From Candidatus Nomurabacteria bacterium (GTDB lineage: Bacteria; Patescibacteriota; Patescibacteriia; HK-STAS-PATE-3), in contig CP060223.1 in the NCBI GenBank assembly GCA_023898465.1, positions 64,001 through 128,000 on the forward strand: 64,000 bases of DNA. The letters are read 5' to 3'. A program made the position numbers and the translations under genes. Positions 29,537 through 45,047 of the stretch are shown here, piece by piece (position 1 is the stretch's first letter; each line of letters starts with the position of its first letter). The notes under the pieces were generated by a model. It searched no databases. It worked only from the letters and a program-made list of their open reading frames with translations, and was not told where the DNA came from.

Positions 29537-29743
29537 GTAGTTTTGTATTGGGAAGGAGCTACACAATTAAATGAAATAATGTTGTAGTATTTCGTAAAAT
29601 CTTGCGAATTATTTTTTTATTTGCGCGTTTTTTTATATGTAATGAGTTTTGTGTGAATATTTTTTTGCGTACATTATGTAAAAAATATTTTATGTGTTGT
29701 TGTGTACAAATGTAATTTGTTGTATATTTTGTGTACAATGTAC

Positions 29744-29772
29744 TTGACAAGATTTCGGATGACTTTTTTAAT
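29744..29772 (+). promoter_or_regulatory. sigma70-like promoter (TTGACA-N17-TTTAAT) preceded by AT-rich region with two TGTGTACAA repeats
   Basis: The sequence is cttgacaagatttcggatgactttTTTAAT, followed by the RBS aaggggg and the ATG at 29815. The tgtgtacaa repeats sit at 29701 and 29730. Confidence 0.45.
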
Positions 29773-29814
29773 GAGAGTATATTGAATACATCGCACATGA
29801 AAGGGGGTGGCGAT

Positions 29815-29964
29815 ATGGCAACAAAGAAGCGCGCAACAAAGCGCAAGACCAAGAAGCCTGCAAAGCGAAAGGTAGTACGCCGCAAGGTAGCAAAAAAAAC
29901 TACAAAGCGAAAGACAACCAAGCGCAAAACAACAAAGCGTAAGACGACTAAGCGTAAGCGCTAG
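29815..29964 (+). CDS. small lysine-rich histone H1-like DNA-binding protein (49 aa, KRKTT repeats)
   Basis: The product is MATKKRATKRKTKKPAKRKVVRRKVAKKTTKRKTTKRKTTKRKTTKRKR. It has an RBS, a promoter and a downstream T-rich terminator. Confidence 0.6.
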   Translation: MATKKRATKRKTKKPAKRKVVRRKVAKKTTKRKTTKRKTTKRKTTKRKR

Positions 29965-30062
29965 TCTTTTTTCGTCTTCGTAAATCAGAAGGGGTCTCAC
30001 ACAGAGGCTCTTTCTGTTTTTTATATGCTATGGTATACTTTTTCGGTAAATATATTAGGGGG

Positions 30063-30935: not shown

Positions 30936-31077
30936 CTAAATATATACTCGTTTATTTATACTCTTTGATCTTGTCATTTGTGGGTGACAGGGTTGACAAA
31001 AAGGGGTGTTTTGGCATACTTTATCTAGTTCTTTGATCCGCAGGCGAACCACAACTCTTTGACAAGGAGTGACACGG

Positions 31078-31260
31078 ATGAATCAGTCTGTAGCGCAGGG
31101 AAGCGAAGTCCAGAGTGTACACATCCACTGTGTACAGGAAGGCGGATCTCGCTGTTCGGTTTGCCATACCCAGTTTGCTGACGGCGATGACGTCTGCCAG
31201 CAGGGCCATCAGATCGGCGAGACCTACGAGGTTTCCGTCCCTATCAACAAGGCTGCCTAG
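31078..31260 (+). CDS. small Cys4 zinc-ribbon-like protein (60 aa)
   Basis: The Cys pattern is HCVQEGGSRCSVCHTQFADGDDVCQQGH. An aaggag RBS sits 8 nt upstream, and a hairpin plus T-run lies downstream. It is GC-richer than its flanks. Confidence 0.4.
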   Translation: MNQSVAQGSEVQSVHIHCVQEGGSRCSVCHTQFADGDDVCQQGHQIGETYEVSVPINKAA

Positions 31261-31322
31261 CAGCCACAATGCTCCTCTTCGCAGCTTGCGCGGAGGAGTA
31301 TTTCTTTATTTTAGGCTATCCC

Positions 31323-31351
31323 TTGACAAGATAGGGTTTTTCATGTAGTAT
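31323..31351 (+). promoter_or_regulatory. sigma70-like promoter (TTGACA-N17-TAGTAT)
   Basis: The sequence is cttgacaagatagggtttttcatgTAGTAT, 20 nt upstream of the pilin-like gene. Confidence 0.5.
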
Positions 31352-31371
31352 TCGCGGTTAACTTATCACCT

Positions 31372-31962
31372 ATGCAAAAGAACACCCTACAAGTCATCGC
31401 AATATTGGGCTTAAGCGTTCTCGTAGCACTCGAGCTCGCGCTACTCATTACCCGCTTTTTTGGCATAATTTCGCTAGAACAAGCCAAAAATGAGGAAAAA
31501 GCCAGTCAAAATACTGTGGTTGTGCTTTCTCCGCAAAAGCGGATCGAAGAAGTGCAAAGTATTGTTGCAGCATTGAAAGAGTATAACGAGGATCGCAAAA
31601 GCTATCCTAAGACGCTGCAAGGCTTAGTTCCGGCCTACTTATCAGGCCCAAGCGATCCGAGCACTGGATTTTCCGCCTATCGTTATGTCCCAATTGGTGA
31701 GCCGATTGAGTTTTACACGCTTACCTACACCATTACCGAGGACTACAACGAGCAATTACTGGCCGGCCAGCACGTGGCAAGTCCAAAAGGCTTAACTGGT
31801 GGAGAATTCCCACTAAGCGGCTCTGATTTAGATAATGATGGTGTGGATGACGCTGTAGAAATTTATGTCTATCGCACTGATAGTCAAAATCCTGACACTG
31901 ATAATGATGGATTCTCTGATGGTGTCGAGATTAGCAGCGGTCATAACCCACGAGGAAAATAG
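31372..31962 (+). CDS. type IV pilin/pseudopilin-like protein with C-terminal thrombospondin-type-3 Ca-binding repeats
   Basis: An N-terminal TM helix is followed by a GspG-like segment (IEEVQSIVAALKEYNEDRKSYPKTLQGLVPAYLS..PSDP). Two DxDxDGxxD repeats are present (DLDNDGVDDAVE, DTDNDGFSDGVE). There is no canonical G/FTLIE prepilin site. Confidence 0.45.
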   Translation: MQKNTLQVIAILGLSVLVALELALLITRFFGIISLEQAKNEEKASQNTVVVLSPQKRIEEVQSIVAALKEYNEDRKSYPKTLQGLVPAYLSGPSDPSTGFSAYRYVPIGEPIEFYTLTYTITEDYNEQLLAGQHVASPKGLTGGEFPLSGSDLDNDGVDDAVEIYVYRTDSQNPDTDNDGFSDGVEISSGHNPRGK

Positions 31963-31963
31963 T

Positions 31964-32728
31964 ATGGAATCTACGCAATCAACAACTTTTACAAGCAAAT
32001 TACTACGCCGCAAAGGCGTGGTCAGCATCGTGGTGTTATTGGCTCTGGCGATGAGCTACGGCGTGCTCTTAACTCAACCTTTTCTTTATCAGGCACGTGT
32101 GGAGCTGCTTATTATTCAGCAGCAGTCAGAGAATCAAGATTTACTCTCTGCACTTCGCGCCACTGAACAGGTTGGTAAAGGCTTAGTTGATGTTATTAGC
32201 ACCAGTTCATTCTTTGATAAGGTGCTGGCAACCGACTTTCCAATTACTGATGATTTCGGCACAAATCCGGAAGAGCGTCGCTTAGCTTGGCAAAAAACTG
32301 CCCATGCATCTATTTCTCAGCAATCTGGAATCTTAACAGTCACCGTGCTGCACAAGAATAAAGAGCAGGCAGCGGTGATTGCCCGCGGCGTGGCGCAAGT
32401 ACTTACCACCGAGAGTCAAGAGTTTCACGGTAAGGCAAATATCATTGTGAAGGTAGTAGATGATGTCTATACCAAGCAATGGCCTGTGCAACCAAACATT
32501 CTTGGTACTACCGTAGCCGCGCTTTTCTTTGGCATCATTGCCGGTGTTGGAATTGTCGCCCTCCTTCCTTTGCCAAAAGCAAAAGAAGCCGCGCCAGCAA
32601 TTCGTCGTACTGAAAATGATATGAGTGGAGCAGCGCCAAGTGCGCGAAAGACTTTGCATGAAATACGTATGAAGTCGACTCCGCCTCCGAGCCTACCGGG
32701 CATCGATGAAGAGGAAGACGATCTCTAA
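31964..32728 (+). CDS. Wzz/GumC-like polysaccharide chain-length determinant family protein
   Basis: It has N- and C-terminal TM helices flanking a ~170-aa domain. The ATG lies 2 nt after the upstream stop. Confidence 0.4.
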   Translation: MESTQSTTFTSKLLRRKGVVSIVVLLALAMSYGVLLTQPFLYQARVELLIIQQQSENQDLLSALRATEQVGKGLVDVISTSSFFDKVLATDFPITDDFGTNPEERRLAWQKTAHASISQQSGILTVTVLHKNKEQAAVIARGVAQVLTTESQEFHGKANIIVKVVDDVYTKQWPVQPNILGTTVAALFFGIIAGVGIVALLPLPKAKEAAPAIRRTENDMSGAAPSARKTLHEIRMKSTPPPSLPGIDEEEDDL

Positions 32729-32861
32729 CACGTCGTGCATTCTCAAGGGATGGAAGAGCTTCCATCCCGGAATGAGTGCGAGACCCGTACTCTGAACGTT
32801 GACAATTGAACGTATCAGGACTGGTTCCTGCATACGACGAGATAAACTTGGAGGTTTCCGT

Positions 32862-34085
32862 ATGCGCTGTTTGACCATGGCGTTGTGCCTTTGGCTCATC
32901 TTCGTGGCCAATGCGGCGCATGCAGGTGAGTATCAGAATCTCCGACCCGGTCCGCCGGTGTTGGAGCTGGGTGCGTTTTTCGCATCAACCTTTCCCGAAG
33001 CTCTACCACAGCTGCCAGCTGGCACGGTGGTAGCACACTTCCCGTGTCCGGTGCCGGCGACATTCGTGTTTGCCGATCGGAGTCTCCGCACCTACTCACT
33101 TCCGAGTGAGGCAAAGGTGGTGGCGACGGAGCTGCGTCGGGACGATGGTGGAGCGTACTACCAGTTGCTCTATCTCCTCTCGAATAAGCAGGCGAGCTAC
33201 GCGGAGCGATTCGCGTATCCGATCTGGCTGAATAGCGATCCGGTCTACGTCCCCAACAACACCAAACTCTTGGTATTGGAACGTGGTCCCGAGCAAGCGA
33301 CGGTTGTCACTTCTGCTCCTGTGACTGCGACACCGCAGCAGCAGGGTGAAGCGATCAAGACGACGCCGGTGGTGAGAAACACGCCCGTGTCCTCTGCGCC
33401 ATCGACTGGACGGGTTGAGGGTGAGCACATCATCCATCACCCCTTCATTCGCGGGCAGCTTGATTTGAGGACGGAGTTCCTCGGTGTGAAACCCGAGAAC
33501 ATCTTCACTCATCAAGTGATTCCATCGCTTTGGCTGAACCAACACCTTGGTTTGACCGGACGTTGGGAGCGGCACGAAGCGAAGGATCTCGATCCATCGC
33601 AGGGCTGGGGAGTCGGGCTCTGTTACCGGACAGCTCCTATACATCGATTGTCGGTCGAGTACGCTCGATTGACATTTGGTGAGATGAGTTCGTCCGGGCA
33701 AAGCATTCAGCTCGTGCATTTCGAATCCAGGCTACAAACCTGGTTCCTGCATCACGAGTTGGAAGCAGAGCAGCGGGATAACGACGCGAAGGAAGTTTGG
33801 ACTCGACTACGGTCGGGGCTTGCTTTCCAAGTCGGCTATCGTAGCCGGCTGCAGATGGGCGGAGAGTTAGCTAACCTGAACTACGAACTCGTAGCACAGG
33901 ACGGCTACTACTACGTGTCTGCACTTGGGACGCGCTTCAATCGATCTCACTACGGAGCATTTGCCAGCTTGGATACCCATCTGGGTGATCACTTCCCACT
34001 ACGACTTCTGGTCGGCGGCGGGAAGGGCAGTGTTCCAGAATGGAACTACATCAATGCCGAGCTGAGACTCGGAGTTGATTTCTGA
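32862..34085 (+). CDS. secreted OMP-like protein: signal peptide, N-domain, S/T/P linker, C-terminal beta-barrel-like domain ending in Phe
   Basis: The signal peptide is MRCLTMALCLWLIFVANAAHA, and a GGAGG RBS precedes the start. The C-terminal 230 aa show an alternating hydrophobic pattern and end in ...AELRLGVDF*. The GC content is high. Confidence 0.6.
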   Translation: MRCLTMALCLWLIFVANAAHAGEYQNLRPGPPVLELGAFFASTFPEALPQLPAGTVVAHFPCPVPATFVFADRSLRTYSLPSEAKVVATELRRDDGGAYYQLLYLLSNKQASYAERFAYPIWLNSDPVYVPNNTKLLVLERGPEQATVVTSAPVTATPQQQGEAIKTTPVVRNTPVSSAPSTGRVEGEHIIHHPFIRGQLDLRTEFLGVKPENIFTHQVIPSLWLNQHLGLTGRWERHEAKDLDPSQGWGVGLCYRTAPIHRLSVEYARLTFGEMSSSGQSIQLVHFESRLQTWFLHHELEAEQRDNDAKEVWTRLRSGLAFQVGYRSRLQMGGELANLNYELVAQDGYYYVSALGTRFNRSHYGAFASLDTHLGDHFPLRLLVGGGKGSVPEWNYINAELRLGVDF

Positions 34086-34335
34086 TGTACGAATCCTGGC
34101 CACTTGGTCAGTACTCATAACTCGTCGGGTGGTCAGGAGATCCGTAAGGATTTCTACAAAAGGACCTAAGGGTCCGCGACCTGTGCCGAACGCACACGGA
34201 GGACAACATGCGAAAGCGTGCTCCGCCGACTATCTGATGAGCTTGTGTAACTGACCATGCCCCAATCAACTTGTTTGGGGCTAGGGATTAACCTGCCCCG
34301 ACAACAAAAAATTGGGGCAAGCCAAGGAGGAAGCC

Positions 34336-35625
34336 TTGTTCAAGCTTCGCATCAGCGCGATCTTCGCGCTTCTCATCCTTCTGGGTGCCGGTCTCTATGG
34401 CTGCGCTCAGGAGCCCATCGTGTTCCAGCCCGATCAGGATGTGCCGACCGATCAGCTGCCGGGCGATGGCACAGCCACGCTCAGTCTGCAGATCGGCGGC
34501 GTACCGGCCCAGCACAATGGAGGCGCTTCGAGTGCTTTCATGGTGACCAATACGGTGCAGGTGATCGGCAACATCTTCCTCACCGGTGACCGACTGGACA
34601 CCGAGTGGAAGATGCAGAACTGGAGCAGCGGCGATGTCCAAATCCAGACCATGAACGGTCGTTGGTATTCGGTCGCTCCTTCGGTCGACGGCAACGTCCA
34701 GATCACCAACTTCCTCATCAACGACATCCAGCCGCAGCATTTCGTGCAGCTGGATGAGATGAAGGGGATCTTCGCCCAGGTCAAGCTGTTGCCGGATTCG
34801 TCTGGCTTCCAGTTGTATCAGCTCGAAGACAACCGGGATCAGCTGATGACGGTGCACTACCGAGTCTACGATCCTGCCCCGGCTGACTTCCAGGGACTCC
34901 AGATCGTGGGAACTTCCACGAACTGGAATCAGATGTATCCGGAGGCGATCTACAGCTCCGACTACGGTATCTGGGAGTGGTGGGGTCCGGCGTTGAAGGC
35001 GAGCGGCAACAAGGTCGCTTTCCGGATTCGCGGAAGTGGGGCTCTGCCGACCTCGTATTTGATCACTGCCCAAGGCGAAGTGAACGGTACGCCGGTTGGT
35101 GAAGAGGTCCAGCTCGACTGTACGGAGTTGGTGGAGAACGTGAATACGTACTTCGCCAGCACGACCTGGTTCACCGACCGCGGTTGGTTGGCTGGGAAGC
35201 GAGTCTACCGACTCATCATCCACGAAGATGGTGGTATCGAACAGGGATGCGGAGGCATCCCGATTCAGACGACCATCTCGATCACGAACAACCGCATTCC
35301 GCAGGATCACCACCTGATGTGTGTCTACGACGGCTACAACGACAATCAGCCGTTCGAGATTCCTCGGGTGAGCGGCAAGTGGGAAACCACGCAGATCACG
35401 CTCCATTCTGGTCCGGCGGCTCTGTCGGTCTGGGATACGAGTGACGGAGACAAGCCGATCATCACCACGGTGAAGATCGGCAGCCAGGAAGTGAAGCACC
35501 TCGAAGTGTTTCAGGATCCTGGTTCGGAGCCGACGGTTCACTTCACCTTCGTCCTTGGCGAGGGTCCGACCCTGCAACAGGGGACGGACAATCGCACTGG
35601 TACGATCGGAGGAGAGAACTACTAA
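34336..35625 (+). CDS. lipoprotein, unknown function
   Basis: The RBS aaggagg lies 5 nt before the TTG at 34336 (the ORF track uses TTG 34312). The lipobox is LLGAGLYGC. The antisense 456-aa ORF is Arg-rich and spurious. Confidence 0.6.
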   Translation: MFKLRISAIFALLILLGAGLYGCAQEPIVFQPDQDVPTDQLPGDGTATLSLQIGGVPAQHNGGASSAFMVTNTVQVIGNIFLTGDRLDTEWKMQNWSSGDVQIQTMNGRWYSVAPSVDGNVQITNFLINDIQPQHFVQLDEMKGIFAQVKLLPDSSGFQLYQLEDNRDQLMTVHYRVYDPAPADFQGLQIVGTSTNWNQMYPEAIYSSDYGIWEWWGPALKASGNKVAFRIRGSGALPTSYLITAQGEVNGTPVGEEVQLDCTELVENVNTYFASTTWFTDRGWLAGKRVYRLIIHEDGGIEQGCGGIPIQTTISITNNRIPQDHHLMCVYDGYNDNQPFEIPRVSGKWETTQITLHSGPAALSVWDTSDGDKPIITTVKIGSQEVKHLEVFQDPGSEPTVHFTFVLGEGPTLQQGTDNRTGTIGGENY

Positions 35626-35667
35626 TCGCCAGCCCTGGGAACGCTGACGATTGCACATTCTTGCCCC

Positions 35668-35712
35668 GCCCGCTACAACACTTTGTGTTGAAGCGCGGCG
35701 GGGCTTTCTTTT
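35668..35712 (+). terminator. intrinsic terminator (GC hairpin + ctttctttt)
   Basis: The sequence is gccccgcccgct...agcgcggcggggc followed by a T-run. A TTGACA promoter lies 70 nt downstream (35782). Confidence 0.5.
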
Positions 35713-36010
35713 ACCTTGGCAGGATGGAAATGTAACTAGTCTTCAAGTTCTGATGTTTGTTGAAGCAATGTTTCGTAGGGCTTGACAAAATAGCACTTTT
35801 CCTGCTAAAGTTCGCCGTTAACCAATGCGTAAAACCATCTAAAAAACGAACATTTTTACCACAACGACCTTAGTCGTTTGTGCTACTTATGGACATGAAT
35901 GGCTTGAGAAATGCCTAGCATTCCTCAACCGATTCTGGACCGGAAGTACTGCAGTAATTGTCATTCTTTGACAATTGAATTCAGAAGTCATTCTCACAGA
36001 GGAGGGTCTC

Positions 36011-37207
36011 ATGCGGACCTGGTATGTGGTTCTTGCGCTACTGGCGCTCGTCTCCTTTGGGTCCGCTCGGGCCCAGGTCATCGAAATCCCGATCGACTAC
36101 GTCGCGACGGATTCGGTGATTGCGAACTGGCCGCATCTCAACATCGGGGGCAACCCGGTGTACAAGAGCGGCTACCCGGCTGATTCCTTGGCAGTACATG
36201 CTGCTCGGGACGGCTGGTTCAAGACGACCTTCAACTTTCCCGTCGGGATCTACTGTCTCGATAAGGATGGGAAGATCATCAAGGGACGTGTCGAACCCGG
36301 ACAAACCATGAAGAATGGTGCCCGGGCCGATACGCTGATCGTGTCTATTCTAGCTGAGACGCCGGAGCAGACGCTGTATCAGATCCACGTTATTCAGGCG
36401 TGCGGTAACCCCGTGCTCTGGTCAGGCGTCGGTGTGTTGAAAGCACCGAAGCCGACTGGCCCACTGCCGCCGCCAACCCTGACTGTTCCGAAGCCCCCAG
36501 CACCACCTCCCATTGCGGAGACGGAGCCGCCGATCGTAGTAGAGCCTGAAAAACACTTCAGGCTACCGATCGATGGTTGGGCTGGAGTGGCAGGAAGTAA
36601 GTCACTCGAGTCCAAGGCTTGGTCGCTCTTCGAGGGCGTCTACATCGACTTTCCGTTGATCGTGGACAAGCTCACGTTCAAGTTTGGGGCGGCAACGTCT
36701 CAGGCAAACTACGAGAAGCTCCGTGGTCGGACGAGTTACCGAGGTGTTGGCGGCGATATGAGTCGCTGGCAAGTCGGCCTCTTCTACCGGCCTTGGGACA
36801 ACATCCAGGTTACCGGCCTGATTGGTCAGCAGTATGACCATAAGGCTGGCGACTGGCAGGATGGCGTCCAGCTGGAAGGAGTGCTGGGTTTCCCCATCGG
36901 TCGCTGGTGGAACGATGAGGATGTCAGCTACGGCACTACGACCAAAGCACTTTGGTTCCGCACTCGACATGCCTACAAGCTGTCGGGTGAAGGAATGCAT
37001 TGGTGGTCGATCGGCGGCGAGTTTGTCTATGACTCGTTCATGGACAACGATGGTCGATTCTACACTTCGCGCGTTCACGTATTTGGGAAGCGAGAGTTTC
37101 CCGGATTCTGGAATCGCGAGGCTGTCTTCATCTTCGGTGGCGGAAGAGGGAGTAAAGACGAGGCTTGGGGCCTCATAGCAGAACTAGGGCAGCGGCTCTG
37201 GTTCTAG
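36011..37207 (+). CDS. secreted OMP-like protein: signal peptide, N-domain, Pro-rich linker, C-terminal beta-barrel-like domain ending in Phe
   Basis: The signal peptide is MRTWYVVLALLALVSFGSARA, with a GGAGGG RBS. The linker is PKPTGPLPPPTLTVPKPPAPPPIAETEPP. It ends in ...GQRLWF*. The architecture matches the gene at 32862. Confidence 0.6.
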   Translation: MRTWYVVLALLALVSFGSARAQVIEIPIDYVATDSVIANWPHLNIGGNPVYKSGYPADSLAVHAARDGWFKTTFNFPVGIYCLDKDGKIIKGRVEPGQTMKNGARADTLIVSILAETPEQTLYQIHVIQACGNPVLWSGVGVLKAPKPTGPLPPPTLTVPKPPAPPPIAETEPPIVVEPEKHFRLPIDGWAGVAGSKSLESKAWSLFEGVYIDFPLIVDKLTFKFGAATSQANYEKLRGRTSYRGVGGDMSRWQVGLFYRPWDNIQVTGLIGQQYDHKAGDWQDGVQLEGVLGFPIGRWWNDEDVSYGTTTKALWFRTRHAYKLSGEGMHWWSIGGEFVYDSFMDNDGRFYTSRVHVFGKREFPGFWNREAVFIFGGGRGSKDEAWGLIAELGQRLWF

Positions 37208-37221
37208 AAGGGAGATTCCTG

Positions 37222-38385
37222 ATGCGTTTTCTCCGTTTCATGGCCGCTGCGCTGTTGCTGCTCGGTGCCTTCGGGTGCCAGAAGCTCCCCAGCGAGCCGA
37301 TCGACACCGGTGGCAGTCAGCCGCCGCAGGAGTACAACGGACCTGAGTCTGGTCTCGCGCTCAACTTCGAGCGTGGCGCCGGACAATACGAATTCGTTTC
37401 CGACATGTTCATCCATCAGGGTGGCGTGACGGATTGGGCGACTGTAACAGTCAACCCGGATAACTTCTTCCTCACCACCTACGCTGGACACTGGTATAGC
37501 GACATGCTGACCAGGGACGGTGTGCCGGTGCTGGGAGACTACACTCTGGCCGGTTCGACTCCGTCCAACTACTGGATGGATGAGAACCGCGGTGTTTTCG
37601 CGAGCCACATGGTTCTCGTCAGCGACGCTGACAGTGCCTGGGTCTGGCAGTGGCCCTCCAATGCCAGCCAGTTGGTCGACCTCGACATCGAGGTGCTCAA
37701 CTGGTCATCGGCAACGGATCTTGGCGTGGTCGGTACGCCGACGTGTTACGTCGTGCACCCGGCCATGTTGAACCACTTGCATGACAACGTCTACGGACGC
37801 TCGCTACGCCTCCTGCCCGGTGATGCCAAAATCGCTGTGATGGATATGTACGAGCGAGTTGGTCTGGGTGATGCAGTCACGGTCCGTATCAACGGCACCG
37901 AGCTGGTCGCCTACGTCGATGACTTCACGCATGACAACCAGCCGACGGTACATCGTTACTTCCGCTTTCACGTGAACGCGGATGGGACGGTGAGCTCGAT
38001 CGGTACTGAGAACCGATTCTCGTATGGGAACACGGTCTCGGTCAGCAATTCCAATATCGATCCCAGCGCTACGGTGTATCTCAACGGCACAGGCCTCACC
38101 AACGGTGAGATGATGCCGATGACCTATGTCGGCAGCTGGACCTGGCAGCTCACCGGTCTCACGACCTGGGTGGGCGAGCAGGATTTGAGGGTGAGTATGG
38201 AAGACGGGACTGGTGTGTTTCGTACCGTTCGCTTGAACGGAACGGAGTTGCACCACCTGGCTGCCGTGCCGCTCGACCCGGATCCTCCGATCCAGGTCTT
38301 CCGATGCACGCCCATGCATGACCACACGGTGATGCAGGGCGAGGACAACCGGGCCGCTGACATCGGCATGGAGACCGGCGGATGA
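37222..38385 (+). CDS. lipoprotein, unknown function
   Basis: The lipobox is LLLLGAFGCQK. An RBS gaagggag is present. Confidence 0.6.
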   Translation: MRFLRFMAAALLLLGAFGCQKLPSEPIDTGGSQPPQEYNGPESGLALNFERGAGQYEFVSDMFIHQGGVTDWATVTVNPDNFFLTTYAGHWYSDMLTRDGVPVLGDYTLAGSTPSNYWMDENRGVFASHMVLVSDADSAWVWQWPSNASQLVDLDIEVLNWSSATDLGVVGTPTCYVVHPAMLNHLHDNVYGRSLRLLPGDAKIAVMDMYERVGLGDAVTVRINGTELVAYVDDFTHDNQPTVHRYFRFHVNADGTVSSIGTENRFSYGNTVSVSNSNIDPSATVYLNGTGLTNGEMMPMTYVGSWTWQLTGLTTWVGEQDLRVSMEDGTGVFRTVRLNGTELHHLAAVPLDPDPPIQVFRCTPMHDHTVMQGEDNRAADIGMETGG

Positions 38386-39869
38386 GCGAAGAAGGTGATG
38401 CGACAAGTCGTGAGGTGCCTCCCCAAGTAAGAGAGGTACTTCGCCAAATGCAACGAGTCGCGAAGAGAGATCGCAAAAAGAAGGCGAAGCATCGAGCCCG
38501 CAGAGAGGAACGGAAAAAACAGGCAAAGGCAAGAGTGAAAGCTCGAACGGGTGAGCAGTCAACAGGTTCTCCAAGGAAAGGAGATGAACCTCGTCGTCCT
38601 GTTCCGCCGCCTCAGCCTGCACCAAGTGCTTCGCCGTCCTACGCATCTCTACTGGGAGATAAGCTTGGGGGAATTCCTCAAGTAAGACGAAATCCGAAGA
38701 GAGCAGAAACAAACCTGGGAGGCTCGCCGAGCTTCCCCCAAGATGAGGAGGGTCATGTAATGCCCGAGGTGTCCATGCGCGAAGAAGGAGGATCGAGGAA
38801 GCTTTTGATTGCCACTGTGGCGATCTTGTGCGTCCTCTTGGTCGGGGTGCTGATCTACACGCATCCCTGGAGTCCTCAGCAAGGTCTGACGGAGACCGAG
38901 GTGTCGGATATGATCAGGGAGTTCGCTGATCAGATGCCGGCTCCGGTCGCTGAAATCCCCGATGACGTGGTACGCAAGGGTGACCTTGCTTCGATGCAGC
39001 CGGCGGCGATCACTCTCAGCGCTTTCGACGAGACCTATCTCGATACGCTGTGGGCGACGGTCAAGGATCCGGTGACCGGGAAGATCGACTCGACGATGGT
39101 CGTGAAGACCCGGACGAGGAATCCCATCACTGATTTGCAGAAGGACGTGAAGAGTACCAATGCCGAGGCTCGTGCAGCCAAGGTTGCGGCACGGAATGCG
39201 GAGAAGCGTCTCAAGGAGACGCCGACCCAATTCGCCGTGACCGTGCCTTCGACTTCCACATCGACTTCGCTTCACCAGCCTGGTGGAGTGCAGTTGGGTG
39301 GTACCACGACCACGACGGCGCCTGTGCAGATGACGACTCGAACGAGTACGCAAGCCGGGCTGGTGGCTGGTACGATCGGAGGTGGTTCGCCGCCCCCGCC
39401 GCCGGCTAGCAACGTCGCTGTGTCCATGACTACCACGATGGTTCCGGCCGGTGAACAGGTGATGGGTGGGGACGGCTTGATGAAGCAGGGTCCGGCCGTT
39501 GCCTTTGTCTACAACGGTCAGACCTACGTTCGTCGGGATCTGGTGCAGCGCAACAAGTACGGCGACCCGATCAACCCCAGTCGAGCTGACCAGAACTTCT
39601 ACGTGATGGCCGGCGAGCAGGGGATGAACTGGAAGCTCGTCAATCCGGCCAAGCAGAAGATGACGGTCCAGGGCGACTATTTGGTCTGGCCTGGCGTGAT
39701 CAAAGGTCCTTTCCAGGTCGGCTGGGTGGATCCGAACGACCCGGCCTACATGCCTGAAAGTGGCGTAGTCTGGGCTCCGATCGCTGAGTTCTACTCCGGC
39801 TACGACGGGACCTTCTGTCGTGACCCCGACTATCAGTTGAGGGCTGTGGCGATCCAGCAGATGCCGTAG
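38382..39869 (+). CDS. membrane-anchored protein: K/R-rich cytoplasmic N-tail, one TM, T/S/P-rich region, C-terminal ~130-aa domain shared with the gene at 40047
   Basis: An ATGA overlap joins it to the upstream gene. The TM is LLIATVAILCVLLVGVLIY. The C-terminal segment GPAVAFVYNGQTYVRRDLVQRNKYGDPINP...GDYLVWPGVIKGPFQVGWVDPNDP...VWAPIAEFYSG aligns with residues ~265-375 of the next gene. Confidence 0.6.
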   Translation: MSEEGDATSREVPPQVREVLRQMQRVAKRDRKKKAKHRARREERKKQAKARVKARTGEQSTGSPRKGDEPRRPVPPPQPAPSASPSYASLLGDKLGGIPQVRRNPKRAETNLGGSPSFPQDEEGHVMPEVSMREEGGSRKLLIATVAILCVLLVGVLIYTHPWSPQQGLTETEVSDMIREFADQMPAPVAEIPDDVVRKGDLASMQPAAITLSAFDETYLDTLWATVKDPVTGKIDSTMVVKTRTRNPITDLQKDVKSTNAEARAAKVAARNAEKRLKETPTQFAVTVPSTSTSTSLHQPGGVQLGGTTTTTAPVQMTTRTSTQAGLVAGTIGGGSPPPPPASNVAVSMTTTMVPAGEQVMGGDGLMKQGPAVAFVYNGQTYVRRDLVQRNKYGDPINPSRADQNFYVMAGEQGMNWKLVNPAKQKMTVQGDYLVWPGVIKGPFQVGWVDPNDPAYMPESGVVWAPIAEFYSGYDGTFCRDPDYQLRAVAIQQMP

Positions 39870-39897
39870 TCCGCGACTGCAACGTTCTTTACTTCAA

Positions 39898-39936
39898 CCC
39901 CCGCTATATCTACGGATGTAGCGGGGCTTTCTTTTT
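39898..39936 (+). terminator. intrinsic terminator (cccccgcta-N12-tagcgggg + T-run)
   Basis: A perfect 8-bp stem is followed by ctttcttttt. Confidence 0.7.
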
Positions 39937-39943
39937 ACTATGC

Positions 39944-39972
39944 TTGACAAAATGCCAAAAATAGCATACTAT
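39944..39972 (+). promoter_or_regulatory. sigma70 consensus-like promoter (TTGACA-N17-TACTAT)
   Basis: The sequence is cttgacaaaatgccaaaaatagcaTACTAT, 75 nt upstream of the 40047 start. Confidence 0.6.
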
Positions 39973-40046
39973 AGCCGGTTCTTTTTGCACCTCACAATCT
40001 AGTTACACAAGCGAGAGACACTACACATCCCAACCGGGAGGACTAC

Positions 40047-41225
40047 ATGCTCCAACGTTTCTTTGCGTGGTCTTTGCTGGCGCTCTTCGCCTTCGGCTGT
40101 GCCGGAGGTAGTGCCACGCTGAAGCAGCATCAGCAGCCCGTCGGGCAGGTCTACGTGGGCGACTGCGTGCCGTCGGATGGCATTCATCCGACTGGCTACC
40201 TTCGCCTGACCAAGCCGCCGGAGGACTTCAACTCGATGCTGTCGATGTGGCACGCTGTTCAGGCCGAGGGTTCATCCGAGCCCTCGAAGATCGAGGTCGA
40301 CTACATCCGGGTCTACGCCCACGTAGCCGGCCGCGATTCACTGCTCGACAGCGACGAGTACAACGACATGATCGGGGACGGAGGTCTCTATCTTCGTCAT
40401 CCCTCGTGGTTCTACAACGATGACCATACGAGTCTGCCCTGCGAGTTCGACATGGTCAACGGTTACTTGGTCTTGCGACCGAGCGACTACCCGGATCGAG
40501 TCTTTCACTGGTGGAATTCCTACCATCCAGCGGAGGATGTCTGGCGTGTCACTATTCCGGCCGGTGCTACCAACTGCTGGGCAGAGACTCGGATTCGGAT
40601 TACGGGTCCAGCCTATGTCCAGGGCGGCATTGACTACTGGCGTTCACTCACTGCTCCGTACGGCGGCGTCGAAGTGAACAACCGGGAAGCCTGCATGTCC
40701 AACTGGACTTGCTCGGCTGATCCGGGTTGGCAGACCATCGTGGTTGGTAAGGACAAGCCGCAGGGCGACAGCGCTGTGGTCGATGCCGATGAGAACGGGA
40801 AACCGAAAGTCGTCCAGGCTCCGGTCTACGATCCTTTCGAGAGCAAGGCCGACGGTCTCCTCAAGAAAGGCGCTGCTGTCTGTTTTGTACAAGACGGACG
40901 CACCTACTTCCCGAAGGAGATCGTGGCGACGAACAAGTACAGCGATCCGGCTCGCCCCAAGAATGGCAAGTACTACTTGCTGGGCGGGGTGAAGCCATGG
41001 GCTATCGCCGGCGACGATCAAGAGCTCCGGGAAAACGGGGATTACCTCTACTATCCCGGCGTGGTCGACAAGGTGTGTCAGGTGGGCTGGGAGGATCCGG
41101 CCGACGCTTCGGCCGATCCGTCCGGAACCGTATGGAGCGCTTCAGCGGAACTTTTCTCGGGTCGCCCGGGATCAGTTTCGAAGAACGGTCAGTACGGCTA
41201 CCTGCCAGTCAATCTCTCCAACTAG
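40047..41225 (+). CDS. lipoprotein with C-terminal domain paralogous to the gene at 38382
   Basis: The lipobox is LLALFAFGCAGGS, with a GGGAGG RBS. The C-terminal segment AVCFVQDGRTYFPKEIVATNKYSDPARP...GDYLYYPGVVDKVCQVGWEDPAD...VWSASAELFSG aligns with the upstream gene. Confidence 0.6.
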   Translation: MLQRFFAWSLLALFAFGCAGGSATLKQHQQPVGQVYVGDCVPSDGIHPTGYLRLTKPPEDFNSMLSMWHAVQAEGSSEPSKIEVDYIRVYAHVAGRDSLLDSDEYNDMIGDGGLYLRHPSWFYNDDHTSLPCEFDMVNGYLVLRPSDYPDRVFHWWNSYHPAEDVWRVTIPAGATNCWAETRIRITGPAYVQGGIDYWRSLTAPYGGVEVNNREACMSNWTCSADPGWQTIVVGKDKPQGDSAVVDADENGKPKVVQAPVYDPFESKADGLLKKGAAVCFVQDGRTYFPKEIVATNKYSDPARPKNGKYYLLGGVKPWAIAGDDQELRENGDYLYYPGVVDKVCQVGWEDPADASADPSGTVWSASAELFSGRPGSVSKNGQYGYLPVNLSN

Positions 41226-41334
41226 GAGAAGGTGATTCACCCCGGTGCATGCAATGCGTGCGCCGGGTTTTCTTATTGACCATGGGCAATATTTTTGCTA
41301 TAGTCGCCTGTTCACTTTCTTTTACTGAGTTGTA

Positions 41335-43107
41335 ATGTTACGCAATATTCTTGTCATTCTCGGACTCGCCATTTCACTCACCAGCTTCACGCCAAAGCAG
41401 GAGAGTCGCGATGGCGTGTATGCGTTTACCACGCCTCCTTTAAGTATTGGTCAAGGAGTGGTGGTGACAAATGATGGCATTGTGATTGGCGATGGCGTGA
41501 CTGATTCCCGGCAAGGAATACAGGAGCTGCTTAGTGGTGATGACTTGGAACATTTTCTTGACCAAAGCTCTCAGCAGTTTGATGCCGTAGAGCTGCGTAT
41601 CTGGACATGGTTCCTGGGTCAAAACGATTTTACTATTGGCACGGTGAATAATTTCCTTGCCCGTGCTCATGCCCACGGCTTGCAAGTGTACTTAAATACT
41701 TGGGAATATCCTGGCACACATCCCGACCTTCTGCCTGCTGAGTATCAGGCATATAAACTTGCTGACACCGGACAACGCGTGCCGGCCCTAGTGAATGATG
41801 GACAAATCAGCGCGCAGCACATTGATAAAGCAAACCCCGCTGCACTGGAATGGATGAGTGGGCAACTGCGGAGTGCGCTGACTTCTTTTGACGTTTTCGA
41901 TGGATACCTCATTGTTGAGGATAGGGTTTCCGATTGGGTGCATGGGTCTTTCCCACAGTATGTACGTTATTGGGATTCACCGACCTATTCCGATGCAGCG
42001 CTTGATTCATTTCAACATTATCTCCTACTGCATGGTCAGGATGCAACACAGCGATTCCCAGTGGATCGTCCGGAGTTAGTTTCTCAATTCACCCAGTATG
42101 TTCCTTCAGCCCCAGAAAGTGCTTTATGGAAGTATTGGTATCAATGGCGCTTTGAACTTTTTGCTGACTATGTGGAGAGTCTGAGTAATGCGGTGAAGTC
42201 AGTGCAAAGGGTGCCAGTGCTTTACATGCCTTGGCAACGTGTGGTGGATGAATTTGATTACGCCTACGCTGATGATTGGTCAGCCAATCGTTGGGATGTT
42301 GGATACGGTCCGGGCAATCCCGAGAATGCCATCTTCGGCGTCTCGCTTCACACCCTGGCAAAACGCGGATCAATTGATGCCTACGTGCATGAATTTGGAG
42401 AGGATGGTACGCATGAGCTCTGGCCAATGTCTTTTAATGCGCTGCAGTTAGAAAAAGCCAAAATTGCTTTGTCAGATTCTTATGTTACCCTAGGCAGCTT
42501 TATTCAATTTTTTAATTACGAAGGTAGAGAAATAGTTTCCCCTGAACTACTTCAAGATGCCTTAGCCATCGGACGGCAAAACGAGGCAAAGATTTTTGTA
42601 GCTTACGATGTTGCCACACTGTATGATCGTTCAGGTCGCTATGATGCACATACCTCAGCGCTTTGGCAGCAAGCAAGAACACATGCATATGCCATTGATG
42701 AAGAGGAAATCCGAAACGCAAGTCAGCTAGCGCCAGCGCAGGTTTTTGCTCGAAAATTACCTGAACAGATTCCAGAAGGAGTGGCCGCCTGGACTGCCGA
42801 TGATGGGTATGTGTATGTGCGGACCGAGGCTCTGCCCGGTAACGGACCATACTATGTCGTATACGATCACTGGAATGCACCACTACTTGATGCGCAGCAC
42901 CTTATGGAATACTATCCAGAGCATGGTTTAGTCGCTATACATGCTGATGGGTTAAAAGGCGCTGCTTTTCAAATCATTACTCCGGGACCGCAGGGTAGCG
43001 TCGCGTGGTCAGAAATTCGTGAACAGCTTTGTGAGCTGGGGTATCAAGGGATCGTATGTAGCCCAAATAGTTGGCTTTATCAACCAGTGGGGCTTCATTC
43101 CATGTAG
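41335..43107 (+). CDS. secreted protein, putative TIM-barrel glycoside hydrolase-like (tentative)
   Basis: The signal peptide is MLRNILVILGLAISLTSF. NTWEYPG and YLIVEDRVSDW are possible clan GH-A acid/nucleophile-like motifs. A terminator and a promoter (TTGACC-N17-TATAGT) lie upstream. Confidence 0.35.
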   Translation: MLRNILVILGLAISLTSFTPKQESRDGVYAFTTPPLSIGQGVVVTNDGIVIGDGVTDSRQGIQELLSGDDLEHFLDQSSQQFDAVELRIWTWFLGQNDFTIGTVNNFLARAHAHGLQVYLNTWEYPGTHPDLLPAEYQAYKLADTGQRVPALVNDGQISAQHIDKANPAALEWMSGQLRSALTSFDVFDGYLIVEDRVSDWVHGSFPQYVRYWDSPTYSDAALDSFQHYLLLHGQDATQRFPVDRPELVSQFTQYVPSAPESALWKYWYQWRFELFADYVESLSNAVKSVQRVPVLYMPWQRVVDEFDYAYADDWSANRWDVGYGPGNPENAIFGVSLHTLAKRGSIDAYVHEFGEDGTHELWPMSFNALQLEKAKIALSDSYVTLGSFIQFFNYEGREIVSPELLQDALAIGRQNEAKIFVAYDVATLYDRSGRYDAHTSALWQQARTHAYAIDEEEIRNASQLAPAQVFARKLPEQIPEGVAAWTADDGYVYVRTEALPGNGPYYVVYDHWNAPLLDAQHLMEYYPEHGLVAIHADGLKGAAFQIITPGPQGSVAWSEIREQLCELGYQGIVCSPNSWLYQPVGLHSM

Positions 43108-43135
43108 GGAGTTCTTTGTCAGAGGAGGAGTGAAT

Positions 43136-43600
43136 ATGCAGTGGAGGTTGTGGATCTACGTGTTGGCTTGCGTACTGTGCGCATCGCAGTCTGCGTACGG
43201 TCAGTCTGAGCAATTCCAGCCAATGTACAGCATAGCGCCAGAGTATCCACTTTCAGCGTGGATTGCTGGTGAGTCTGGGTCGGTGATGGTGGGAATGCAG
43301 ATTGACCCGGTCGGCCGTGTGGAGGAGGTCTGGGTTCAGTCTTCAACAAGCTCGTTGTTTGAGCGGTATGCGCTCGAGGCGGCGAAGCAGTGGGTTTTTG
43401 TACCGATCATGCCCATGGTGGATCTGATCGACGCGGTGGATGGCGTTATGGTCTTGCGTAGAATTCCGGAGCTTGAAACAGCGAGTTACCTGGAAACACA
43501 TCCGGGAATCATTGACAGTCTCGTCTACGAGTGGACGGAAAAACAGGACCAACCGTCCCCGGTCCGTAGCGTCAGTATCCCTTTCAATTTCAACCACTAA
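43136..43600 (+). CDS. secreted TonB C-terminal domain protein (stand-alone, no Pro-rich/TM part)
   Basis: The RBS agaggagg precedes the start, and a signal peptide is present. The motif YSIAPEYPLSAWIAGESGSVMVGMQIDPVGRVEEVWVQSSTSSLFERYALEAAKQWVFVP matches the TonB_C fold signature (YP..A...G.SG.V.V.F.I...G.V). Confidence 0.55.
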   Translation: MQWRLWIYVLACVLCASQSAYGQSEQFQPMYSIAPEYPLSAWIAGESGSVMVGMQIDPVGRVEEVWVQSSTSSLFERYALEAAKQWVFVPIMPMVDLIDAVDGVMVLRRIPELETASYLETHPGIIDSLVYEWTEKQDQPSPVRSVSIPFNFNH

Positions 43601-43634
43601 GTACGAGCCGCTTATCCTCTGGGTAGGCGGCTTT

Positions 43635-43832
43635 CTATATATTCAAATCAAGCGATTGAATCAAGACAGGCAGAAGAAGCAGTACGCCAATCAAGGGGAG
43701 TAAGAATAAGAGAAGGTTGGCAACTAAGGACCATAGGAAATATTTCCGCGTTTTTTCTGTTGACTGATAGATGGCCTTGAGTAAAGCATCTTGATCATCA
43801 AGTCGTTTTTTTAGTTCGTCGTCCATATGCAT
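43635..43832 (-). CDS. small membrane protein (65 aa)
   Basis: It has a hydrophobic C-terminal half. Its start overlaps the stop of the upstream ORF, indicating an operon with the flavodoxin gene. Confidence 0.35.
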   Translation of the reverse strand: MHMDDELKKRLDDQDALLKAIYQSTEKTRKYFLWSLVANLLLFLLPLIGVLLLLPVLIQSLDLNI

Positions 43833-44221
43833 TAACTTAAGAAATCAAGGTAAATGCCAATAAGAATGGCCAGTGTTGAAGAGGTAAATATGACAATATA
43901 GTTCCAGCGTTCTTTCGATGAGCCAAGCGTTGTAAAGATATAACGCATTGCAGATCGCTCTTCCTCTGATAGGTTATCAAGTGATTGAATACGTTCAGCG
44001 AGCTTATATTCAGCAATGACACGCGCTCTTTTTTTCGCAACTTGGTAACGATGCAAAAAATAGAGCACAAAACCGACCGTACCAAAATACCAGACCACTT
44101 GCACCCAAACTGTTCCGATATTGTTCAGTACAATAATACTGCGATAGGCGATGGTGGCAAGTATGCCTATCCAAAAAAAGAGTAAGCGAAGTCCTGCCGA
44201 ATGAGGTTTCAAGGTTTCCAT
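43832..44221 (-). CDS. membrane protein (129 aa, ~3 TM), unknown function
   Basis: Its start ATG overlaps the flavodoxin stop (taATGg). Confidence 0.4.
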   Translation of the reverse strand: METLKPHSAGLRLLFFWIGILATIAYRSIIVLNNIGTVWVQVVWYFGTVGFVLYFLHRYQVAKKRARVIAEYKLAERIQSLDNLSEEERSAMRYIFTTLGSSKERWNYIVIFTSSTLAILIGIYLDFLS

Positions 44222-44700
44222 TACTTGCTGTTTGCTTTATCTAGTACATGTGTAGCCCAGGCCTGTACACGCTGACGATTTTTATCCAAATCGTAGAAAT
44301 AATGAAGCAGCCGAAGTGTTGCGCCTATCTTTTTTCCACCTACATCAGTAACCAATTTTTCGAGGTGGTCAGCAGCCGCGCAAGTTTCTTGATACGATTC
44401 GTCACCTAATCCGTAGACAGCAAAATTTTGCTTATGCAAGGAGACGCCATGAAGTTTTTCAACCAGTTCCCGCATATGTTGTTGCAGTTGACCTTCTAGA
44501 CGTTTACCATCTTCAGTAATATGTTCCCAGGTACAGGAGCCTAGGAAAACAAAATCCGGCTGGCGAAGCTCCTCTGCTTGTACAGAATCGGCCCGGCGGA
44601 TATGTACGGTGTGTCCAGCTTCTTGCCAGACTGATGCGATTTGTTTGGCCACGTCCAGCGTGCCGCCGGAATTCGTGCCATAGACAATGAAAACCTCCAT
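44221..44700 (-). CDS. flavodoxin (short-chain)
   Basis: The N-terminal flavodoxin signature is MEVFIVYGTNSGGT. It is ~159 aa. The longer ORF to 44919 runs through the tRNA gene and is rejected. Confidence 0.7.
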   Translation of the reverse strand: MEVFIVYGTNSGGTLDVAKQIASVWQEAGHTVHIRRADSVQAEELRQPDFVFLGSCTWEHITEDGKRLEGQLQQHMRELVEKLHGVSLHKQNFAVYGLGDESYQETCAAADHLEKLVTDVGGKKIGATLRLLHYFYDLDKNRQRVQAWATHVLDKANSK

Positions 44701-44792
44701 ATATATATAGTGTACGGTATTTTCTCGCATTCGGCTACTGTAGGATGTTGTAAAAAAGAAAAAGAACGGACACATAGCCCATTCTTTTTCTT

Positions 44793-44867
44793 TGGCTCCG
44801 GGGACAGGGATCGAACCTGCGACCAAGTGGTTAACAGCCACCTGCTCTACCACTGAGCTACCCCGGA
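44793..44867 (-). tRNA. tRNA-Asn (anticodon GTT), CCA encoded
   Basis: The reverse complement is TCCGGGGTAGCTCAGTGGTAGAGCAGGTGGCTGTTAACCACTTGGTCGCAGGTTCGATCCCTGTCCCCGGAGCCA. It has a 7-bp acceptor stem, a D-arm, an anticodon loop CTGTTAA and a T-arm GGTTCGATCC. Confidence 0.85.
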
Positions 44868-45047
44868 ATACACCCACTTGAACGAAGCCTAGTGTAGCGT
44901 GCTCAGCCTTTCTTGGCAACTATAGGCTTGAAAGAATAAGGCATTGACAAATGTATCATATATAGTATGATGGAATTGCTTGTTAGCTCTTTGCATCAAC
45001 GAGACACGTTGTTCGGCAAAGCTGACATCTAGAAAAAGGAGTATGAG

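Follow-up and report, generated by a model that had tools for sequence, protein, structure and literature searches.

The window, meaning the whole 64-kb stretch of DNA analysed here, belongs to a 1,082,586-bp genome record (a MAG of ~47% GC), and the window proteins are USN53622-USN53634. All eight open reading frames that the initial annotation had listed for this locus were present on the forward strand with the starts that it had assigned (Table 1). To their left lie genes for a TSP3-repeat protein, with orthologues directly 5' of the cluster in the related lineages L009 (66% identity) and L012 (62%), and for a Wzz-like protein with two hydrophobic segments that start at about residues 17-23 and 177-188. 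The Wzz-like protein is 60% identical to its orthologue in L009, itself a weak Pfam Wzz match, and 55% identical to that in L012; a Pfam search with the window protein gave no match. On the right, the 65-aa and 129-aa proteins have orthologues of 44-57% identity in L008 and L009.

Table 1. Genes and signals at the locus, in window coordinates
Feature	Position	Strand	Basis or remark
TSP3-repeat protein, membrane-anchored, 196 aa (left flank)	31372..31962	+	Pfam TSP3_bac, E=2e-6
Wzz/PCP-like protein, two TM segments, 254 aa (left flank)	31964..32728	+	GC3 0.435
Perfect 10-bp palindrome gggatggaag-ag-cttccatccc, 3' of the Wzz-like stop	32747..32768	+	sequence reading
A1, 407 aa	32862..34085	+	GC3 0.63; signal peptide, N-domain, linker, barrel-type C-domain ending LGVDF
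B1, lipoprotein, 429 aa	34336..35625	+	GC3 0.76; TTG start at 34336, AAGGAGG upstream
Terminator after B1	35664..35712	+	GC hairpin and T-run, by eye
Promoter-like TTGACA-18-TAAAGT, 5' of A2	35782..35811	+	consensus match only
A2	36011..37207	+	signal peptide, N-domain, linker, predicted 12-stranded barrel; ends LWF
B2, lipoprotein, 387 aa	37222..38385	+	all-beta; starts 14 nt past A2
C1, single-pass membrane protein with C-terminal domain X	38382..39869	+	4-nt overlap with the B2 stop
Terminator after C1	39899..39935	+	12-bp stem, 7 GC pairs
Promoter-like TTGACA-17-TACTAT, 5' of C2	39944..39972	+	consensus match only
C2, lipoprotein with C-terminal domain X, 392 aa	40047..41225	+	homology to C1
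Terminator after C2, at the end of the GC-rich block	41241..41277	+	strong terminator
Promoter-like TTGACC-17-TATAGT, 5' of D	41276..41304	+	consensus match only
D, secreted, 590 aa	41335..43107	+	conserved cluster member
TonB_C protein, secreted, stand-alone, 154 aa	43136..43600	+	between D and the 65-aa gene; Pfam, PDB
Terminator after the TonB_C gene	43605..43643	+	13-bp stem
65-aa and 129-aa small membrane proteins, then flavodoxin (right flank)	43635..44221	-	gene calls, orthologues

Each gene had initially been described as an independent promoter/terminator unit. Only four strong terminators and three promoter-like sites are present, and the description does not hold for the packed genes A2-B2-C1 or for D and the TonB_C gene, which are only 28 nt apart. 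The predicted transcription units are A1, B1, A2-B2-C1, C2 and D-TonB_C. The tail of the terminator after B1, GCGGGGCTTTCTTTT, recurs at 39921. The palindrome reported for the left boundary is present, and no T-run follows it downstream. Independent gene calls also gave 429 aa for B1, and the start of C1 can be placed in two ways, which give 495 aa or, from 38760, 369 aa.

By sequence comparison, six of these genes fall into three paralogous pairs, A1/A2, B1/B2 and C1/C2. Profiles of the A1 and A2 types matched in hhalign with E=1.9e-15 and a probability of 98.5%, and B1 and B2 are related with E=1e-10; both pairings are additional to the initial annotation. The paralogous domain that it did report was recovered as a common 130-aa C-terminal region of C1 and C2 (38% identity, E=1e-21), which is a new domain, X. 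In C1, a hydrophobic segment from about residue 136 is followed by a Ser/Thr/Pro-rich spacer and then domain X; C2 has an orthologue in L012 with 42% identity. Each B gene lies directly 3' of an A gene. The three proteins annotated as lipobox lipoproteins, B1, B2 and C2, have visible signal peptides with lipoboxes ending ...LYGC, ...AFGC and ...AFGC (by pattern inspection only), and the Gly-Cys at this position is invariant in nine B-family sequences. Matches to CBM-like beta-sandwiches were obtained for B2. Identities to orthologues are 25-29% for A1 (L009, L012 and L008), and 48.5% (L009) and 38% (L008) for D. A TIM-barrel-like fold had been proposed for D and found no support, as neither D nor its four homologues gave a Pfam, NCBIfam or PDB sequence match.

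The last gene of the series was correctly read as a stand-alone TonB C-terminal domain. The protein exceeds the cut-offs of both Pfam PF03544 (44.8 bits against 24.6, E=1.7e-11) and TIGR01352 (44.1 bits against 27.1), and it aligns with TonB2 in the PDB (2k9k, E=2.5e-8) over the YP motif and the following strands. The bare domain begins at residue 34, directly past a signal-peptide-like segment of ~22 aa. Although this C-terminal domain is that of TonB, TonB itself has a TM anchor and a Pro-rich periplasmic spacer, whereas the 154-aa window protein has neither and carries an apparently cleavable signal peptide. No ExbB, ExbD or TonB-dependent receptor was found among the ORFs of at least 150 aa in the window; incomplete Ton systems occur occasionally in monoderms (PMC12204202). 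A tblastn search against L008, L009 and L012 did not retrieve an orthologue, and on these comparisons the gene is an insertion specific to this lineage, between D and the 65-aa gene. Only one other gene, at 27857-28957, is likewise missing from the corresponding locus of the relatives, and the two behave, separately, like lineage-specific gains.

Within the window, profiles of GC, GC3 and tetranucleotides bore out the GC-richer block noted for 32.75-41.3 kb. In 1-kb windows, GC is 0.53-0.59 from 33 to 41 kb and ~0.39-0.50 on either side, and at 300-bp resolution the composition changes abruptly at ~32.9 kb and ~41.3 kb. The block so delimited holds the six genes A1, B1, A2, B2, C1 and C2, with GC of 0.57-0.60 and GC3 of 0.63-0.76, against GC3 of 0.33-0.53 in 30 other window genes. 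Tetranucleotide correlation with the remaining window is 0.07-0.15 in 4-kb windows starting at 34-38 kb and 0.61-0.82 in windows distant from the block. The segment from 41.3 to 43.6 kb had been called intermediate; instead, gene D is host-like (GC 0.483, GC3 0.425) and the TonB_C gene is GC3-rich again (0.65). Because GroEL has a GC3 of only 0.449, the GC3 of the block is not an expression effect.

The surrounding gene order is shared. In three related lineages (L008/L020, L009/L010 and L012) we found the common order TSP3-like, Wzz-like, A1, B1, A2, B2, C, D, 65-aa, 129-aa, flavodoxin and RpoD-DnaG, with flank identities of 47-84%; in L020 the synteny reaches RpoD (83.6% identity) and DnaG. 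The protein families are nearly missing from public sequence data. A word search returned five homologues for the A family and an exhaustive search of 1.84e9 representatives 12 matches at E<=1e-3; the B family has five homologues and the D family only four in 5.8 billion clusters, and A2 has relatives in only two GTDB species representatives. All relatives of A, B and D with enough sequence context (L008/L020, L009, L012) are syntenic with the window. The identity patterns are in no clear conflict with vertical descent. We consider it probable, at roughly 60%, that the block is a cell-envelope gene cluster that is lineage-specific and has been conserved by vertical descent in a small clade of Patescibacteria related to Nomurabacteria.

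Some GC3 enrichment of the cluster is found in every relative and is strongest in this genome, the excess over the flanks being +0.28 in the window, +0.17 in L020 and +0.08 in both L009 and L012, and genome by genome the GC3 of the cluster tracks the GC of the host. At ~0.70, the cluster GC3 here equals that in the GC-rich relatives L012, L017 and L020 (0.66-0.84). The excess is a property of the cluster across the clade, maximal in this genome. Its most likely cause is homologous replacement by an allele from a GC-richer relative, and recombination-linked GC bias is a possible second cause. Taken as an account of the whole block, such a replacement would have been recent: an ancestral cluster whose copy was swapped for that of a relative of ~55-60% GC by recombination in the conserved Wzz-like gene and in D, with D and the flanks staying native. 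We regard this as a serious possibility, short of even odds. The excess here is 1.6 to 3.5 times that of the relatives, the GC3 of the cluster equals that of the clusters of L012, L017 and L020, the compositional edges fall exactly in intergenic regions adjoining conserved genes, and D is host-like. In addition, the flanks and D of the window are nearest to L009, but for A1, B1 and C2 the lineages L012 and L008 are as near or nearer. However, this incongruence of identities is small, the searches turned up no closely related donor allele (the nearest homologues are 57% identical for B2 and 46-47% for A2), and a single swap would leave unexplained why every relative shows some GC3 excess.

A2 consists of a beta-rich N-domain (residues ~40-143) in which Cys82 and Cys131 are invariant, a Pro-rich linker (146-184) that is predicted to be disordered (pLDDT <50, no helix by DSSP), and a C-terminal domain (188-398). 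AF2, working from a shallow alignment of 13 sequences, placed 12 strands across residues 188-398, with pLDDT ~90 for the greater part of this domain, and its five models are consistent with one another (mean pLDDT 74-78.5). A Foldseek search with the model gave 62 matches at E<=1e-3, the best 50 of which are all outer-membrane (OM) barrels, and across the two independent structure-comparison methods used, Foldseek being one, the matches listed were almost only OM barrels. Ten of 11 A-family members end in an aromatic residue, and several barrel strands alternate charged with hydrophobic residues. By profile-profile comparison the C-domain of A1 is homologous to the A2 barrel. The initial annotation was correct in assigning the locus to the cell envelope and in describing beta-barrel-like C-domains that end in Phe. 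We conclude that, for the C-domain of A1 and A2, a 12-stranded transmembrane-type beta-barrel is a strong prediction.

It is improbable, in our judgement, that the barrel is a modelling artefact, with A1 and A2 not inserted in a membrane but acting as beta-rich proteins (adhesin or S-layer-like) that are secreted or associated with the wall, in an ordinary fast-evolving Patescibacteria surface-protein locus. The shallowness of the alignment would allow it, as would the amphipathic moment of the predicted strands, which in a family-averaged test was only weakly above that of shuffled sequences (z=1.7, with 98 of 2000 shuffles reaching the observed value). Neither A1 nor A2 matched any Pfam or NCBIfam family at E<=1, OMP families included; the A-family profile gave no match to PDB sequences; and the phylum counts as monoderm (PMC12102498). 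Against an artefact stand the concordant, high-confidence models of the 210-residue domain, the structural matches, the conserved terminal aromatic and the alternation within the strands. Moreover, in the distant relatives P0038 and P0039 a TM helix takes the place of the barrel behind the A2 N-domain and a Pro-rich linker.

Several known systems resemble the predicted A proteins. Type Va autotransporters (BrkA 3qq2, Hbp 3aeh, NalP 1uyo) have the same order of signal peptide, N-domain, linker and C-terminal 12-strand barrel with an aromatic end, and the barrels of intimin and invasin (5g26, 4e1t) are 12-stranded OM barrels like that predicted for A2. However, no Pfam Autotransporter match was obtained for A1 or A2 at E<=1, the autotransporter pore is filled by a helix whereas the Pro-rich A2 linker has none, and the passenger is a beta-helix whereas the beta-rich A2 N-domain has ~100 aa. 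Autotransporters also depend on an OM and BAM, and the host phylum of the A proteins is considered to have neither; no BamA-like gene was seen within the 64-kb window. The KdgM/NanC porins (4pr7, 8xua, 2wjr) are monomeric 12-strand barrels of ~200-220 aa, as is the A2 prediction, and an adjoining glycan-binding-like lipoprotein would suit sugar uptake; these porins have no extra N-terminal domain, and the A proteins gave no Pfam KdgM match. The OmpM/SlpA (functionally OmpA) tethers of Terrabacteria combine a wall-directed N-domain, a spacer and a C-terminal beta-barrel, an arrangement that the A proteins may share. Their barrels are considerably larger than 12 strands. The A proteins further differ in having no SLH, OmpA_C or coiled coil, and LysM, which matched weakly in two of five A1-type proteins, both distant relatives (E ~1e-3; 19 bits, Pfam cut-off 20.9), is absent from the window A1 and A2. 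The architecture of OmpM/SlpA-type and toga barrel proteins is given in PMC10160955 and PMC10628300. For the toga of Thermotogae, barrel families that are restricted to the lineage and lack homologues elsewhere among the phyla have been reported (PMC10160955), and the A barrel family is likewise lineage-specific.

The initial annotation had offered an envelope module acquired from a diderm donor as one explanation. A recent island of this kind, with OM proteins that are functionless or repurposed in the new host, would fit the sharply bounded deviation in GC, GC3 and tetranucleotides, the predicted OMP-like fold of A2 and the TonB_C domain. We consider it very improbable. Unlike genomic islands, the cluster has the same position and neighbours in three related lineages, no integrase, flanking direct or att-like repeat or border tRNA was found, and there was no phage or plasmid match. 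None of the 12 relatives from the exhaustive search could be assigned to a known diderm; the only one titled Gammaproteobacteria is the relative that is syntenic with the window and shares the 83.6% identical RpoD. The tracking of host GC by cluster GC3 also speaks against an island, and because only a handful of sequences are related to the A, B and D families, a diderm donor is unsupported.

A chimeric assembly of two organisms joined at 32.7 kb and at 41.3 or 43.6 kb, another explanation offered, agrees with the sharp composition steps only and was rejected as having next to no chance, since a 100% identical 20,564-bp short-read contig from SRR12358675 spans both borders (window 24285-44848), contigs of a second run cover 24285-37232 and 37208-44848 with 100% identity, the 43.6-kb border lies inside 100% identical contigs of three unrelated ENA assemblies, and both junctions are syntenic in the relatives.

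If the block is a conserved envelope cluster of this clade, the A proteins may be anchored in a membrane or surface layer by their barrel; distant relatives have a C-terminal TM helix in its place. The barrel would lie in a layer outside the wall, and the N-domain would span to the wall through the Pro-rich spacer, much as OmpM/SlpA- or OmpA-type tethers do. The B lipoproteins could act as glycan-binding partners, and the barrels might, like KdgM/NanC, also let small solutes or oligosaccharides through. To the cluster a secreted bare TonB_C domain has been added in this lineage only, after the conserved D.

The phylum is described as having no outer membrane (PMC12102498, PMC8871954); neither a membrane nor BAM machinery to receive such a barrel is therefore known, and 12-stranded OM-like barrels are unexpected in it. 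The initial annotation had also offered the block as evidence that the host itself is diderm. The host may be so: the barrel prediction is strong, while a sequence test for a lipid-facing surface gave a weak signal (z=1.7). The cluster would represent a new envelope module of predicted barrel proteins in a presumed monoderm. Tentatively, a small clade of Patescibacteria may build a barrel-containing outer layer, either a residual or reinvented OM or a toga-like sheath, or may plant barrels in the membrane of the host to which it is attached, with the A proteins as tether-porins and the B proteins as their glycan-binding partners.

Homologues of A2, one of two secreted proteins (A1 and A2) with an N-domain, a Pro-rich linker and a C-terminal barrel-type domain, numbered five among 5.8 billion clusters, and the contigs reached through them carried the whole cluster with gene order and flanking genes as in the window. 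A Rifle groundwater scaffold (L012) reads 2-Hacid_dh, Host_attach, TSP3-like, Wzz-like, A1, B1, A2, B2, C1, C2, where B1 and B2 are lipoproteins and C1 and C2 share a domain. A second pair of contigs (L009/L010) reads TSP3-like, Wzz-like, A1, B1, an IS, A2, B2, C, the secreted protein D, then the 62-aa and 129-aa genes, and a third (L008/L020) reads A1, B1, A2, B2, C1, two extra genes, D, the 129-aa gene, flavodoxin, RpoD and DnaG. Identity between the window and its relatives was 47-66% in the flanks, 83.6% for RpoD and 25-49% for the cluster proteins, the last being what fast-evolving surface proteins would show. The comparison shows an envelope module, conserved and built of duplicated genes, that is confined to a small CPR clade and whose lead proteins are predicted OMP-type barrels.

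Coordinates of features (window nucleotides unless a contig or residues are named)
Feature	Position	Strand	Description
Surface-protein array	42-24318	+	giant fn3/Pur_ac_phosph_N/DUF2341/LamG proteins
Segments in array	5-8, 10-12, 15-18, 21-23 kb		GC-rich, strongly C-skewed
Overlapping ORF pairs in array	3992-7528/7425-8999; 14424-17597/17488-18051		resemble paralogues that have been split or frameshifted
Single GC-rich gene	27857-28957	+	366 aa; GC 0.559, GC3 0.63; weak Gp_dh_C match only
Palindrome	32747-32768		boundary region
A1	32862-34085	+	barrel-type protein
B1	34336-35625	+	lipoprotein
Shared tail of terminator behind B1	35698-35712
A2	36011-37207	+	barrel-type protein
A2 N-domain	residues 40-143		predicted beta-rich, pLDDT 82-91
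A2 linker	residues 146-184		Pro-rich, predicted disordered
A2 C-domain	residues 188-398		twelve long antiparallel strands predicted, pLDDT about 90
B2	37222-38385	+	lipoprotein
C1	38382-39869	+	start ambiguous (38382-38760)
Shared tail of terminator behind C1	39921-39935
C2	40047-41225	+
D	41335-43107	+	secreted, 590 aa; GC3 0.425
TonB_C gene	43136-43600	+	GC3 0.65
Long ORF	44221-44919	-	3' part (about 157-160 codons) is the real flavodoxin gene
tRNA-Asn	44793-44867	-	within the long ORF
IS (rve transposase)	L009 4487-5365		between B1 and A2
Serine recombinase + Toprim-primase block	L009 12294-16363 / L010 7191-11260		after the 129-aa gene; probably a mobile element
Two added genes	L008 6266-8277		a 161-aa protein and a 452-aa DUF4832 protein, between C1 and D; absent from the window

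The initial annotation had offered an island from a diderm donor as one reading of this block, which was rejected on the synteny in relatives and the lack of mobility signatures. The cluster has no integrase, flanking repeat or border tRNA, and no flanking direct or inverted repeats were convincing as att sites. A phage or plasmid origin was likewise rejected, with no PHROG, IMG/VR locus or PLSDB match. The suggestion of a chimeric join fell to assembly evidence: a 20,564-bp short-read contig from SRR12358675 matches 24285-44848 at 100% identity and so runs through the block and both proposed boundaries (32.7 and 43.6 kb), a second sequencing run gave contigs over 24285-37232 and 37208-44848, and the stretch 42933-44443 is also present in three ENA assemblies of separate projects. 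Two independent short-read assemblies break at the same points, 44848 and 24285, which suggests that repeats are present there.

The contig containing L008, L018 and L020 (CAZWTD010000006.1) is titled 'uncultured Gammaproteobacteria bacterium'; it has the same cluster and flanks, with RpoD 83.6% identical, and its taxon label or binning is probably wrong. The DUF4832 protein of L008, which we take to belong to a glycoside-hydrolase-like family, adjoins D and was rejected as a relative of it (hhalign probability 0.1%).

The six GC-rich genes comprise three paralogous pairs. B1 and B2 share 23% identity across 345 aa (E=1e-10), and C1 and C2 have in common a 130-aa C-terminal domain (38% identity, E=1e-21), the paralogous domain noticed initially, which is kept in all lineages in the alignment and matches no family. 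Compared pairwise, A1 and A2 seem unrelated (E=0.11), but their family profiles match across the C-terminal 170 columns (E=1.9e-15). When 1.84 billion representatives were searched exhaustively with the A2-type profile HMM, only 12 proteins matched at E<=1e-3. Among them were A1-type proteins, of which two had weak LysM matches, and two distant relatives (P0038 and P0039) that retain the A2-type N-domain (IGANPV...CxNP motifs) and Pro-rich linker and end in a single TM helix rather than the C-domain. Because the helix replaces it in this natural anchor swap, the C-domain itself is suggested to be an anchor. Across all eight proteins, Pfam, NCBIfam and PHROGs gave TonB_C as the sole match; run on all sequences in the D, C and A1-type alignments, Pfam returned no consistent match, just coiled-coil noise and the two weak LysM matches. 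The A, B and D profiles had no match among PDB sequences, D, for which a TIM-barrel-like fold had been suggested initially, had four homologues, no family match and no assigned fold, and a metagenome scan contained no A2 relatives.

AlphaFold2 modelling of A2 from a 13-sequence alignment (mean pLDDT 78.5) predicted the barrel-like C-terminal domain that had been proposed. The A family retains an aromatic residue at the C-terminus and shows hydrophobic/charged alternation in several strands, and the barrel call is supported at the level of the model. The family-averaged amphipathic moment of the strands was weakly above shuffles (z=1.7), so insertion into a membrane is inferred rather than shown. 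On these predictions, the A proteins would give a known fold a new and rare sequence family and architecture, in a phylum where it is not expected.

The raised GC of the block is real and its edges are sharp. GC was 0.53-0.59 in 1-kb windows from 33 to 41 kb vs 0.39-0.50 in the neighbours, with steps at about 32.9 and 41.3 kb (300-bp resolution), and tetranucleotide correlation to the remaining window was 0.07-0.15 inside vs 0.61-0.82 away from the block. Most of the signal lies in third codon positions (GC3 0.63-0.76 in the six genes vs 0.33-0.53 in 30 others). The initial observation was confirmed in part: the compositional claim stands for the six genes, D is, contrary to it, fully host-like, whereas the TonB_C gene is GC3-rich. 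A GC3 excess over flanks was found in the cluster of every relative (L020 +0.17, L009 +0.08, L012 +0.08), and is larger in the window (+0.28), where cluster GC3 of about 0.70 resembles GC-rich relatives (0.66-0.84) though the genome is about 47% GC. The cluster allele may have been replaced from a GC-richer relative through recombination in the conserved flanks, as the composition edges are exactly intergenic and D looks native; a close donor was not found, however, and we therefore rate this replacement as a tentative possibility. A clade-wide, recombination-associated GC bias at the locus is the other candidate explanation. GroEL is typically highly expressed and has a GC3 of only 0.449, and on this one data point expression-linked codon bias was rejected as an unlikely cause. 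The cluster is a clean case of strong compositional deviation without recent foreign origin, and urges caution when islands are called in small MAG genomes.

The stand-alone TonB_C domain is genuine and directly follows a signal peptide. The protein has no TM anchor or Pro-rich spacer, the scanned ORFs of the window (150 aa or more) include neither ExbBD nor a TonB-dependent receptor, and the protein appears not to be a functional TonB. Sporadic cases of incomplete Ton components are known from monoderms (PMC12204202). Because in no relative does a corresponding gene lie between D and the genes for small membrane proteins, we count it as a probable gain specific to the window lineage; the metagenome scan yielded no relatives.

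Four strong terminators and three promoter-like sites were found across the cluster, and the boundary palindrome is present. The view of every gene as an independent unit was nevertheless overstated, because A2-B2-C1 (14-nt gap, then 4-nt overlap) and D-TonB_C (28 nt apart) are packed like operons. The terminators behind B1 and C1 end alike, in the same 15 nt of stem end and T-tail, GCGGGGCTTTCTTTT. One gene call makes C1 495 aa with a Lys/Arg-rich tail and the NCBI annotation 369 aa; the long form is favoured by the L008 orthologue, in which a long charged N-tail and the identical 4-nt overlap with B2 are likewise present.

By exact-sequence look-up, the eight cluster proteins, RpoD and DnaG lie together on one NCBI record (USN53622-USN53634, with locus tags from H6760_00405 on). 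The rest of the window fits a Patescibacteria/CPR genome: it encodes a Host_attach protein, a MacB/FtsX pair and giant surface proteins of the fn3/DUF2341/LamG kind, with RpoD-DnaG, GroEL and a PEP-utilising enzyme downstream of the cluster. The single GC-rich gene between 2-Hacid_dh and Host_attach looks like a separate gain, because these two adjoin at the syntenic position in L012.

Patescibacteria are described as having no outer membrane (PMC12102498, PMC8871954), and for this reason the closest analogies are the OmpM/SlpA tethers of Terrabacteria, with an N-terminal domain and a barrel, and, in the Thermotoga toga, barrel proteins specific to that lineage (PMC10160955). We infer that the barrels hold the A proteins in a layer outside the wall and that the B lipoproteins are their partners. 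That the organism itself is diderm, another reading offered initially, is one possibility. A real barrel-containing outer layer, or insertion in the membrane of the host to which the cells attach, seems less likely than not. An outer layer with membrane-type beta-barrels in any Candidate Phyla Radiation member would bear on the loss or gain of the outer membrane in Terrabacteria and on how tiny epibionts contact hosts and feed on them. A1, A2 and the adjacent lipoproteins, conserved in at least four lineages, are concrete testable candidates, and the A/B cluster opens a direct experimental route to the architecture of CPR envelopes.
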